A DNA stretch of 64,000 nucleotides from a virus, in IMG/VR virus record IMGVR_UViG_3300025405_000009, positions 134,848-198,847 of that record. One strand, given 5' to 3'. A program made the translations under genes and the position numbers. The notes beneath the pieces are model-generated. The model was not told the origin of the DNA. It did not search any database and saw only the letters and a list, made by a program, of their open reading frames with translations. Position 1 is the stretch's first letter; the number at the start of each line of letters is the position of its first letter. Shown here one piece after another: positions 7,187-10,403 of the stretch.

Positions 7187-7637
7187 GGGGGCGTACTGGT
7201 TTCGACTTATACTCGAAGTTTGTATGGCACGTAGTGGTTAATCAGTTGGCCACTTTAAAAAGCTGATTAAAAACATAAATGCAGAAGATAACTCTGACGC
7301 TATCCTTGCGGAAGCATTGTATTGTCTCGAGAACGCTGACGAAATCCTCGCCAGCTTTGAAGAGCCAGCACTCCTAGCTGCCTAAGGAACCAAAAGATAA
7401 TCCTATTAAAGCTTTTGGAAATAAAAATAGGTTTAGAAGGTCTTGTGATTCTTAGAAAATTGAGTGCAAGCGGTGGTATGTGGTCGTTAATCACACATAC
7501 AGGTAGGACTCTAAACATGGATAGGTCGCTAGTGCCTGGTTACCTTTAGTCAACCAAAGTACGAAAGCTAGCTAAGCGTGTAGAAGTATAAATAGAAAAG
7601 TATAAACACAGGGGTTCGACTCCCCTCGCCTCCACCA
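7187..7637 (+). ncRNA. ssrA: tmRNA, 451 nt; tag AEDNSDAILAEALYCLENADEILASFEEPALLAA (7281-7385)
   Basis: 5' GGGGGCGTACTGGTTTCGAC; 3' GGTTCGACTCCCCTCGCCTCCACCA; G3-U70; pk1 (AGTGG/CCACT, AATCAG/CTGATT); ATAAAT-GCA resume context; tag ends LAA-stop. Confidence 0.95.
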
Positions 7638-7743: not shown

Positions 7744-8106
7744 ATGGCTTCTACACGTTTAAGCGCAGCTCGCGATATAGCACATGGTAAATTTCCAGCA
7801 ACAGGAGTGAAACGATCTCCTAAATGGGCTGCTGTACGCAAGGAACATCTTAAGAATAATCCAAAATGTGCAATTTGTGAAGGTACAGAAAAACTTAATG
7901 TACATCATATTAAACCATTTCATTTACATCCGGAATTAGAACTCGATCCAAGTAACTTTATTACTCTTTGTGAAAGTGCAAGTTATGGTATTATCTGTCA
8001 TATTCTTGTTGGTCATTTAGGTGATTATAAAAACATAAATCCAAATTCTGTAGAAGATGCTAAAATTTGGAACGCTAAATTAAAAGAAGATCATTTTCAG
8101 AAATAG
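7744..8106 (+). CDS. Small HNH endonuclease in the tRNA cluster
   Basis: CAIC...LNVHHIKP...NFITLC...CH. Confidence 0.8.
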   Translation: MASTRLSAARDIAHGKFPATGVKRSPKWAAVRKEHLKNNPKCAICEGTEKLNVHHIKPFHLHPELELDPSNFITLCESASYGIICHILVGHLGDYKNINPNSVEDAKIWNAKLKEDHFQK

Positions 8107-8321: not shown

Positions 8322-8344
8322 TAAATAGAATTATAGTAATCGGC

Positions 8345-8443
8345 AAAACCCTCTCTACAACTGTTCGAAGAGTTGTATGCATGGAACCGGTTCTTCGTAA
8401 GTTCATACAAAACTAGAACATAATCAAGGACGCTTGAGGTTTT
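8345..8443 (+). ncRNA. Putative ~100-nt multi-hairpin RNA
   Basis: AAAACC/GGTTTT closes TACAACT/AGTTGTA, GAAC/GTTC and TCAAG/CTTGA hairpins; CATAAATA at 8320-8327. Confidence 0.35.
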
Positions 8444-8470
8444 TAGGACAAAGGAACTTACATTAATTTC

Positions 8471-8542
8471 CGCAGAGTAGAGAACTGGTATCTCGTCACG
8501 CTCATAACGTGAAGGCAGTGGGTTCGATTCCCACCTCTGCCA
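8471..8542 (+). tRNA. tRNA-Met(CAT), initiator-like
   Basis: C1-C72 mismatch, A11-U24, loop CTCATAA; anticodon stem TCACG/CGTGA. Confidence 0.88.
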
Positions 8543-8551
8543 ATTTTTTAG

Positions 8552-8580
8552 TTGCCACTTCCTTATTCAGGCATTATATT
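8552..8580 (+). promoter_or_regulatory. sigma70-like promoter of the large ncRNA candidate
   Basis: TTGCCA-N17-TATATT. Confidence 0.7.
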
Positions 8581-8586
8581 AAAAGA

Positions 8587-9101
8587 ATAAGAATTGATCT
8601 TTGATAGTACATTTTGAAATTTGACTAGGCGCAAGTCTTAAAAGCTAAAAGACTCCCGCGATAGGTGATAGCGAAGCATTCGGCCGAGTGAACGTGTAGC
8701 CTATAAGATAAATCTCCGTGAAAGCGAATGAGGTTTTCTAGTCATACAAATTAAGTTCCCACGTTGTAGGTATAATCCGTGGGAGAGATACGTTGAGTTG
8801 TCTGTTGGTATGTTAGTAGACGTATTTTCATAGGAGGAGCCAAAAACTTACATACAGCTACGATCCCTTGCTTTAATAAACACAGACTGGTCGACGAGCT
8901 GGCTCCATGCCGGCACTCGATGAGGAGAGAACAAAATCCGGAACAAAAGCTTTTCAAACACCACAAATTTTCATATAATGCTACCATGATGTCGGTCTCA
9001 AGTCCGAGCGATAGGAGATGGCCTCTCCTACGAAACGCAGAGAGAATGAAAACATAGACTGCAGTCTGCCCCTATTACCCTGATCAGGTAGTAGGGGTTT
9101 T
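8587..9101 (+). ncRNA. Candidate large structured ncRNA (~515 nt)
   Basis: Promoter-to-terminator unit with no plus-strand ORF in the track; many 6-8 bp helices, a GAAA tetraloop and crossing pairings (see findings). Confidence 0.7.
9069..9101 (+). terminator. Intrinsic terminator-like hairpin
   Basis: CCCCTATTACC/GGTAGTAGGGG then TTTT. Confidence 0.7.
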
Positions 9102-9129
9102 CTGTGTTCTAGAATGATTAAATAATTAT

Positions 9130-9258
9130 ATGCTCGATCCACTGGAAGCTGCTATGGTGGGTTTATTTACTTTAGGTTTTATAACAGCTTATGCTATAAT
9201 GTATTCTACTAAGTTGGTAACTTTACTTGCAAAGTATTTTAAGGGAATCAAAAAATAA
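9130..9258 (+). CDS. Small single-TM protein (42 aa)
   Basis: Manual translation MLDPLEAAMVGLFTLGFITAYAIMYSTKLVTLLAKYFKGIKK. Confidence 0.5.
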   Translation: MLDPLEAAMVGLFTLGFITAYAIMYSTKLVTLLAKYFKGIKK

Positions 9259-9299
9259 TTCTTGAATTCCTTTTCGAGTGCCCATATTATAAAGGGGTA

Positions 9300-10403
9300 A
9301 TGAGCACAACAAACACACTAGACAAGTTCGTCGCCAAGAGCAACGATATTCGCCAGACGCTGCAAGGTTATACCCTCGCTCCTCTGGATATTGAGTCCAT
9401 CGAGAAGAACGGAAATAACTTCTCTTACAATAACAACCGCCTATCCAGTACATCTCTTAAGAGTCTCCTTGGAGTTCTTGGAGTTAAGGATCAGCTCGTT
9501 AACGAGATTAAGGATGACAGCTCTCAGTGGGCTCCTCTCCATAATGCTCTTACGAACATTAAGAAGAACAAGCGTGTAACCGCGATTGTTAATAACCACA
9601 ACAATGAGATTGTTAATCTCTTCGATCGCCCTATCAAGGAAGAGCGTCAGATTGACCTCTCAGCTGGTCTCCGTTATACAGAGGCCTTCTTGAAGGACAA
9701 CGAGAATAATCTCGAACTTCGTGACTTTAACTTTGATCCTACTAACATTAGTATTGGAATTAACTTCAAGAACCCTGATTCTGATATTGACGTATTCGGA
9801 GATGGTCATGATATGTGGAAGGGTGGTTTTGGAATGAACTTCTCTCTCAACAAGTCTCAGTTCTATCCCTATCTCCTCCGTTTGGTTTGCTCCAATGGAA
9901 TGACCGCTGTTCATCGTATGGCCCAGCGTTTCATCGATAGTGCTGACTTCAGTCAGAAGACCTTCGATACTCAGGTTCGTAAGTTCCTAACTGGTGACGC
10001 TCTTCGTCAGGAGATTACGTCAAGTGCTAATCGCCTTAGGGATAACAATGCCTCCCTTAGAGAATTCAATGCTGCTCGTAGTATTACGATGAAGTATGAT
10101 AAGGAGCTAGCAGTAACTGCTTTCTCTGATCACGAGATTCGTTCACGGTATAAAGAGGTCGGTATTGATCTTAATAAATCGAAGGGTACTCGTTGGCAGT
10201 CAACGGCTAACTCGAACGTTAATGCTTACGATCTCTTTAATAAGATCACAAACGTTGCTACTCACAGTGTCTCTGACGAGAACGTAGCATTCAGGATGGA
10301 GCTCAACCGACTTGCCTCTGAGTTGTTCTTCAAGGGACCAGACTTCGCTTCAATCGCACCGGATCCATTCCGTGAGGTTGCACCAGCAAATCTTAACGCC
10401 TAA
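9300..10403 (+). CDS. DUF932/DUF945-like protein
   Basis: YLLRLVCSNGM signature and N.YDLFN.ITN..TH tail; TTGAAT-N17-TATTAT promoter at 9262-9290. Confidence 0.7.
   Translation: MSTTNTLDKFVAKSNDIRQTLQGYTLAPLDIESIEKNGNNFSYNNNRLSSTSLKSLLGVLGVKDQLVNEIKDDSSQWAPLHNALTNIKKNKRVTAIVNNHNNEIVNLFDRPIKEERQIDLSAGLRYTEAFLKDNENNLELRDFNFDPTNISIGINFKNPDSDIDVFGDGHDMWKGGFGMNFSLNKSQFYPYLLRLVCSNGMTAVHRMAQRFIDSADFSQKTFDTQVRKFLTGDALRQEITSSANRLRDNNASLREFNAARSITMKYDKELAVTAFSDHEIRSRYKEVGIDLNKSKGTRWQSTANSNVNAYDLFNKITNVATHSVSDENVAFRMELNRLASELFFKGPDFASIAPDPFREVAPANLNA

Follow-up and report, generated by a model that had tools for sequence, protein, structure and literature searches.

The DNA analyzed here, a stretch of 64,000 nucleotides (nt; hereafter the window), is the final 64 kb of the 198,847-bp virus record IMGVR_UViG_3300025405_000009, which belongs to an uncultured T4-like phage (its Gp23 major capsid protein was matched at 231 bits). 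On the plus strand of the window, at positions 8587-9101, we found a conserved unit that is a non-coding RNA gene built as a chain of separate folded modules: a leader, a domain 1, a pseudoknotted domain 2, a domain 3 that we assign to a divergent form of the twister self-cleaving ribozyme, and a terminator. We consider it rather probable that this is a stable-RNA unit of a T4-like phage, in which the twister would trim the terminator tail from the transcript, later cuts would divide the remaining body, and copies of domain 2 would pair with one another. A sequence-only reading of the locus had proposed one ornate RNA of ~515 nt; the conserved, structured RNA within a single transcription unit stands, while the notion of a single RNA does not, since the modules are separate, domain 3 seems to be a twister and domain 1 is replaceable.

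Relatives and coding potential

Relatives were gathered through the gene downstream of the unit (9 loci) and through DNA patterns. The searches for domain 2, made with a 17-base pattern in viral contigs and with 19.5-base patterns in contigs from metagenomes and from prokaryote genomes, produced >290 loci, and an nhmmer profile of the central part retained 47 of them, comprising 25 distinct sequences and all located on uncultured viral or metagenome contigs (single loci are named by L numbers below). The 59 pattern hits in prokaryote genomes held no real relative and the remaining pattern hits were chance matches; two candidates, L015 and L020, were set aside as chance matches within coding sequence. 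Among 50,697 records of cultured phages, neither BLASTN of the region nor TBLASTN of the downstream protein yielded a match. In the searches made, domain 2 was thus found only in what appears to be one narrow clade of uncultured T4-like lake phages. Nearly all of the helices suggested by the sequence-only reading are present, and compensatory changes across ~22 distinct related sequences preserve most of them.

The plus strand of 8587-9101 folds at -140.2 kcal/mol, and none of 100 dinucleotide shuffles folded as well (z -2.33), whereas the minus strand was no better than its shuffles (z -0.65), so that the expected advantage over shuffled sequence holds for the plus strand only. A minus-strand open reading frame (ORF) of 78 amino acids (aa) at 8751-8987 covers the center of the unit, and was rejected as coding: the columns that vary among relatives are spread over its codon positions without periodicity (32/72, 36/72 and 30/71), and in the L003 and L012 groups the frame is interrupted. 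Insertions and deletions were mostly of 1 nt, with 96 gaps of length 1 vs 23 of length 3. Together with the strand-specific folding, these observations uphold a non-coding RNA locus on the plus strand. The accompanying statement that this strand holds no ORF is literally untrue, as an ORF of 45 aa is present at 8920-9057.

Covariation in domain 2 and its palindromic loop

Domain 2 (8756-8955, plus strand), a constant, pseudoknotted stretch of ~200 nt, is probably the functional core of the unit. In alignment A3, which contains 22 distinct sequences, covarying pairs were counted in helix H1 (TTCCCACG/CGTGGGAG, 8756-8763/8778-8785; 4 pairs), H2 (8786-8794/8819-8827, which includes ATACGT/ACGTAT; 3 pairs), H3 (8833-8840/8857-8867; 1 pair), H4 (8888-8894/8917-8923; 2 pairs) and H6 (8925-8929/8951-8955; 2 pairs), as well as in a crossing helix that creates the pseudoknot (GTCTGT/ACAGAC, 8800-8805/8882-8887; 3 pairs, divided ~11 to 11 between two pair types). 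The observed covariation score was reached by 0 of 500 shuffles, and sliding the partners by 1-3 columns lowered the pairing from 82-94% to 34-59%. Covariation therefore supports five helices and one pseudoknot in domain 2. The H1 helix, the ACGTAT/ATACGT pairing and the crossing GTCTGT/ACAGAC helix had all been picked out by eye from the single sequence and proved real; a further proposed helix, GTATGT/ACATAC, is paired across the family in only 63% of cells and was rejected.

Two additional contacts are possible within domain 2. The invariant segment UGUAGG in the H1 loop (8765-8770) can pair with CUUACA (8847-8852), and this pairing is kept in 98% of cells, with one-sided changes only. In L010 the distal partner, there CCUACA, was lost and a local complement was gained within the loop, next to GUAG; such a swap of a distal for a local partner supports the contact. 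The second candidate, GGAGCC/GGCUCC (8836-8841/8901-8906), is invariant in the alignment and competes with the local helices H3 and H5. As this pairing never varies, variation speaks neither for nor against it.

The hairpin loop of H6 carries the palindrome UCCGGA (8937-8942, plus strand), a candidate site for kissing-loop self-pairing. In other lineages the loop reads UUCCGGAA or AUUCCGGAAU, AUACUAGUAU, or UCGGCCGA, above a stem that covaries, and it is always palindromic, in three unrelated versions; shuffled H6 loops attained each of these palindrome lengths in 0.1-1.2% of trials. The best explanation for three unrelated palindromes in one loop is that two copies of the RNA meet there in a kissing-loop contact, whereas a protein site, which would be expected to keep its own sequence, fits less well. 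The loop thus suggests that domain 2 may form homodimers or larger self-assemblies.

Domain 1 and the exchange of modules among relatives

Domain 1 of the window (form A; 8622-8744, plus strand), as judged by folding and covariation, is a four-way junction with three hairpin arms, closed by a 7-bp stem (8622-8628/8738-8744), and its folding energy lies well below that of shuffles (z -3.06). Every one of the helices that had been proposed for it was predicted by folding, and among the 8 distinct sequences of form A, 7 of 39 predicted pairs covary, as in the change from ATAGGT/GCCTAT to ACAAGT/GCTTGT; the inner hairpin CATTCG/CGAGTG is replaced in L080. Other relatives carry in the same slot a form B, with the closing stem TGACCG/CGGTCA and 6 covarying pairs, into which a hairpin is inserted in L007. 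Between domains 1 and 2 lies a single-stranded, A/U-rich linker (AATTAA; 8745-8755, plus strand) which precedes domain 2 in every architecture (alignments A1 and A3) and which may serve as a processing site.

Over the 25 distinct loci, the order of the parts is leader, optional transfer RNA (tRNA)-Met, optional domain 1 of form A or B, optional extra module, domain 2, optional twister, optional further module and terminator. The tRNA-Met gene lies upstream of the promoter in the window (8471-8542, directly before the RNA unit) and between the leader and the next module in L007, L010, L022 and L164. Domain 1 is missing from L010, L164 and L022, where tRNA-Met occupies its slot. The presence of tRNA-Met inside the unit in these relatives would therefore mark the unit as a stable-RNA precursor of the kind represented by the T4 tRNA cluster.

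Some of the optional parts are absent from the window. An extra module of ~107-150 nt is found between domains 1 and 2 in L002 (3344-3450), L005, L007, L011 and L153, and, shortened, in L144; an 8-bp stem (GATTACTG/CAGTAATC) closes it, and a hairpin of variable form is inserted in it. Rfam gave no match for this module, which varies too little for an inner structure to be supported. In L007 (3814-3863) and L022 (about 9992-10041), the twister is followed by a conserved stem-loop of ~50 nt, and after this module comes a different terminator in place of the small hairpin and terminator of the window.

That 8587-9101, or the ~390-nt body left after cleavage, should act as a single large fold like GOLLD, ROOL and OLE, with domains 1 and 2 cooperating, seems unlikely to us in view of this exchange of parts. 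It is true that a single promoter and a single terminator bracket all the parts, that the plus strand in its entirety folds better than its shuffles, that domains 1 and 2 adjoin in most relatives, and that the palindromic loop would fit the self-assembly of known ornate RNAs (PMC12286853). However, domain 1 exists in two forms and gives way to tRNA-Met at three loci, an extra module may separate domains 1 and 2, no covarying pairing between the domains was found, and no ornate RNA in Rfam matched the unit.

A divergent twister at the 3′ end

Domain 3 (8968-9052, plus strand) was assigned to a variant subfamily of type-P1 twisters by a sub-threshold match to the Rfam family RF03160 and by covariation. 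At a permissive threshold, RF03160 matched 8972-9048 over the full model (positions 1-68) with 25.8 bits and an E value of 0.004, and sub-threshold matches of 28-32 bits were obtained at the equivalent place in all 6 relatives scanned with Rfam. In alignment A2 (17 distinct sequences), the stems P1, P2 and P4 stand in canonical order around two internal loops and are paired in 93% of cells. P1 (TTTTCAT/ATGAAAA, 8968-8974/9046-9052) has 6 covarying pairs and P4 (TCGG/CCGA, 8992-8995/9004-9007) has 3; P2 (8979-8981/9037-9039), of 3 bp, is always paired and switches from UGC/GCA to UAC/GUA in L140 and L179. An additional stem, P5, is formed by TAGGAGA/TCTCCTA (9012-9018/9024-9030). Both pseudoknots, T1 (CUC/GAG, 8997-8999 with 9042-9044) and T2 (AC/GU, 8983-8984 with 9002-9003), are paired in 100% of the sequences. 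The helices first noticed in this domain are thus real and covarying, and they belong to a separate twister, as its P1, P4 and P5, not to one ornate RNA.

This subfamily diverges from the consensus in both of its pseudoknots. Where the Rfam consensus reads GCC ... UCCCAAGC ... GAGGG, the phage family reads ACC ... UCUCAAGU ... GAGAG, and the four changes amount to two compensatory pairs, one in T1 and one in T2. In the numbering of the rice twister Osa-1-4, and under a pairing scheme taken in part from the crystal structures, G13-C31 has become A-U (T2) and C26-G48 has become U-A (T1). The positions given for T1 and T2 in PMC5113685 (C14-G30, G13, G48, C26 and C31) agree with these assignments. 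By that account the changed positions are >97% conserved in known twisters, and deep mutational scanning of Osa-1-4 showed that the ribozyme stays active when other Watson-Crick pairs are substituted for those of T1 and T2 (PMC5113685). The low score of the match is explained in part by these changes, as four highly conserved pseudoknot bases differ and a covariance model cannot credit pseudoknot pairs. Standard Rfam annotation misses this twister subfamily with its co-varied pseudoknots.

Two catalytic bases are in place, an A just behind the cut site (A8977) and a G following P2 (G9040); their columns are invariant or nearly so in A2, the sole exception being L029, which has U at the position of the catalytic G. 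Taken together, domain 3 appears to be a divergent twister with predicted self-cleaving activity, and the cut is predicted to fall between U8976 and A8977. In 16/17 sequences the complete fold is conserved, along with both pseudoknots, the A behind the cut and G9040, and P1, P2 and P4 covary; such purifying selection on catalytic bases would be hard to explain without activity. We therefore regard it as quite improbable that the element is a relic without activity, or mimics a twister in structure only, and that the terminator alone sets the 3′ end, a view that could draw on the score under the gathering threshold, on the changes at positions otherwise >97% conserved, and on the distant copy L029, with its U for the catalytic G and no obvious P1.

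A single twister copy was found in the phage genome. The variant twister (ACC / UCUCAAGU / GAGAG) also occurs elsewhere, away from domain 2, on the minus strand of L030 (2642-2704, between two ORFs), L012 (1993-2067) and L029 (165-237, without a clear P1).

Promoter, leader, terminator and surrounding genes

The unit has its own promoter and terminator, as had been proposed; both were found by scans and both are kept in relatives. A σ70-type promoter (TTGCCA-17-TATATT, 10/12 consensus matches) lies at 8552-8580 on the plus strand, and in relatives such as L006 its hexamers and 17-nt spacing are kept while the spacer sequence has diverged; the transcript is expected to start near 8587. A second promoter-like site at 8951-8979 was dismissed, as it is not conserved in relatives and overlaps P1 of the twister. 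The leader (8587-8621, plus strand) holds a boxA-like core, GATCTTTGATAGTA, at 8596-8609. It is 83-99% identical in most relatives, is, with the promoter, better conserved than any other non-tRNA part of the unit, and has a single copy in the 199-kb genome. The boxA-like element pointed out by the sequence-only reading is near-invariant among relatives; its likeness to boxA amounts to 9 of 13 identical positions between UGAUCUUUGAUAG and UGCUCUUUAACAA, the latter being the Escherichia coli rrn boxA. The leader probably has an antitermination role, allowing read-through of structured, untranslated RNA.

Between the twister and the terminator, a small hairpin, AGACTGCAGTCT, is evident from the sequence and the minimum free energy fold (9056-9067, plus strand), and relatives show AGAGTTCGAACTC in its place. 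The terminator scan placed an intrinsic terminator at 9068-9101 on the plus strand, with a 12-bp stem (9068-9098), a 7-nt loop and a U-run; it is conserved in relatives, with compensatory changes of the stem in L006 and L010.

Just past the terminator lies a small ORF of 42 hydrophobic aa (9130-9258, plus strand), which probably encodes a small membrane protein, followed on the same strand by a 367-aa gene. The small ORF is kept in L002, L003 and L004, and in L003 and L010 an extra gene precedes it. We find it highly improbable that the unit is a cis-regulatory leader, whose domain 2 would sense a ligand or factor and control the twister or the terminator and hence these two genes: it does lie upstream of conserved same-strand genes, L012 has a small ORF directly after domain 2, and tandems of ribozyme and riboswitch are known (glmS and the c-di-GMP-II/group I pair), but a strong terminator, and at L003 and L010 an inserted gene, come before the downstream genes, the tRNA-Met within the unit of some relatives marks a stable-RNA precursor, domain 2 showed no alternative pairing with either twister or terminator, and some loci lack the twister.

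The RNA unit is surrounded by an island of 17 tRNAs (spanning 5337-35607) and one transfer-messenger RNA (tmRNA; 7187-7637, 451 nt, 114.8 bits). The tRNA set of the phage includes tRNA-Ser(ACU) and tRNA-Ile(UAU), and genes of HNH endonucleases are interspersed among the tRNA and tmRNA genes, one of them at 7744-8106. The gap between tRNA-Trp and tRNA-Met (8322-8465) folds better than shuffles on the plus strand (z -2.27) and not on the minus strand (z +0.15), and is ~84-85% identical in relatives; it may hold another small structured RNA. In L003 (IMGVR_UViG_3300025435_000016), a group I intron (RF00028, 84.6 bits) was matched at 2260-2492, over the 3′ part of the tmRNA gene, where the tmRNA itself scores only 53 bits vs ~110 bits in other relatives, and the gene may be interrupted by this intron.

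Proposed mechanism

On the reading that we favor, a phage stable-RNA unit trimmed by a twister, transcription would start at the host-type promoter near 8587 and run to the terminator, with the boxA-like leader helping RNA polymerase through the structured, untranslated RNA. In the transcript, domain 2 would follow domain 1, and the twister, folding while being transcribed, would cut between U8976 and A8977. This would leave a body of ~390 nt with a 2′,3′-cyclic phosphate end and a 9-nt scar, and the ribozyme with the terminator hairpin (~125 nt, with a 5′-OH) would be discarded. As happens in the T4 tRNA cluster, the A/U-rich linkers would be cut in turn by host ribonucleases (RNases), which would split the body into separate stable RNAs; we infer this step because the modules are shuffled in relatives and tRNA-Met lies in the same transcript. 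Copies of domain 2 would pair through the palindromic loop into homodimers or larger assemblies, and, as a guess, the RNA could act as a scaffold or decoy on host translation or on RNA-targeting machinery. RtcB, a ligase able to join cyclic-phosphate ends, was sought in the phage and is absent.

Several points weigh against this proposal. The 25.8 bits of the twister match, and the 28-32 bits of its relatives, stand against an Rfam gathering score of 67.2. A single mutation at the equivalents of G13 or G48 inactivates the rice ribozyme (PMC5113685), so that activity of the phage twister would depend on the compensating partners. The 22 sequences of domain 2 represent about six lineages, and the covariation counts come from correspondingly few independent events. 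In L012 and L025, domain 2 has no twister directly behind it (in L012 a small ORF follows), which indicates that the twister is not obligatory for domain 2. The cutting between modules is deduced solely from their shuffling, and it is conceivable that the palindrome serves as the binding site of a dimeric protein.

A bolder extension, which we hold as tentative and lean against, is that domain 2 represents a new class of self-assembling, double-pseudoknot RNA of ~200 nt, which would be released by the twister with a cyclic-phosphate end, form RNA-only dimers or larger assemblies by way of its palindromic kissing loop, and, while the phage infects its host, provide a scaffold or a decoy for factors of host translation or of RNA-targeting defence. 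In such a class, the invariant GGAGCC/GGCUCC would perhaps pair between molecules.

Implications

As a whole, the unit varies known themes, namely the stable RNAs of phage tRNA islands and the formation of RNA ends with the help of a ribozyme, and its twister belongs, as a variant subfamily, to a class already known. The biological roles of bacterial twister ribozymes are largely open (PMC6765202), and this locus suggests a concrete job for one of them, the cutting of the terminator tail from a phage stable RNA. The RNA that would be trimmed has no match among known families, and its palindromic loop offers a handle on self-assembly, just as natural assemblies made solely of RNA are coming to light (PMC12286853). 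It also extends to new RNAs the puzzle of the stable RNAs of unknown function in the tRNA clusters of T4-type phages. If domain 2 were indeed a self-assembling class, then, together with the other unassigned modules, phage tRNA islands would be a reservoir of ribozyme-processed functional RNAs.

Comparison with known systems

At the gathering score, Rfam gave no match to the RNA unit in the window. With the threshold relaxed to E ≤ 10 (8500-9300 and 8585-8968), the twister and one spurious, sequence-only hit to a long non-coding RNA on the minus strand were the only matches, leaving domains 1 and 2 without any; the Rfam comparison suggested for GOLLD, ROOL, RNase P and group I introns was run and gave no match even at this level. 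A scan of the window and six relatives returned only tRNAs, tmRNA, a group I intron elsewhere and the sub-threshold twister, and no covariance model of GOLLD, ROOL, OLE, raiA, RAGATH or other catalogued large RNAs matched the window or the modules of the relatives. Domains 1 and 2 accordingly seem to belong to no known family, and to be neither GOLLD nor ROOL. An identity of the unit as RNase P RNA or as a group I intron was rejected, as Rfam gave no match to either; a pairing resembling P4 of RNase P (GUUCC 8755-8759/GGAAC 8940-8944) is lost in the L003 group and its 5′ bases belong to the covarying H1.

The twister ribozyme is said to go back to Roth et al. 2014. The element of the phage shares with RF03160 (type P1) a succession of elements (P1, the cut site U-AA, P2, a P4 whose loop is UCNCAAGN, and GAGNG in the 3′ strand), the T1/T2 double pseudoknot, a conserved A behind the cut and G behind P2, and the optional stems P3 (here in L007 and L153) and P5. 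It differs in having A-U in T2 where the consensus has G-C, U-A in T1 where the consensus has C-G, and a P2 of only 3 bp. P5, reported in ~1% of known twisters, is the rule in the phage family. The setting also differs, for here the putative ribozyme lies at the 3′ end of a phage stable-RNA unit (twister ribozymes are reviewed in PMC6154101).

With GOLLD, ROOL and OLE the unit has in common that it is pseudoknotted and that its function is not known. GOLLD and ROOL are often phage-borne and near tRNAs. The core found here is much smaller (~200 nt), modular and ribozyme-bearing, and its self-assembly is a prediction from its sequence, while the ornate GOLLD, ROOL and OLE self-assemble through RNA-RNA contacts seen by cryogenic electron microscopy (PMC12286853).

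The T4 tRNA cluster ends in two stable RNAs, rnaC and rnaD (species 1 and 2), whose function is not known. Like them, the RNAs described here would be stable non-coding RNAs that lie beside tRNAs in a T4-type phage and are probably transcribed together with them, and at 119-139 nt rnaC and rnaD are near domain 1 in size. Unlike rnaC, which has a tRNA-type T-arm, domains 1 and 2 lack one; BLAST of rnaC and rnaD against the unit gave only tRNA T-arm or short chance hits, and the T-loop motif (GGUUCGAAUCC) was not found in 8587-9101. A further difference is that no ribozyme stands at the end of the T4 tRNA cluster.

A ribozyme is found beside phage tRNAs in another system, that of the theta ribozymes, which are reportedly linked, in the paper on them, to the processing of tRNA 3′ trailers. 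These ribozymes, which resemble that of hepatitis delta virus (HDV), adjoin phage tRNAs (PMC10879173). Both systems place a small self-cleaving ribozyme, here a predicted one, immediately downstream of a structured RNA within a tRNA region of a phage, and in both the cut at the ribozyme's own 5′ edge, here a predicted one, frees the upstream RNA nearly without a scar. They differ in the ribozyme, which here would be a twister and not HDV-like, in the upstream RNA, which here would be a novel pseudoknotted RNA of 200 nt and not a tRNA, and in their carriers, lake T4-like phages here and gut phages for theta. Theta ribozymes are the nearest precedent for the use of a twister proposed here.

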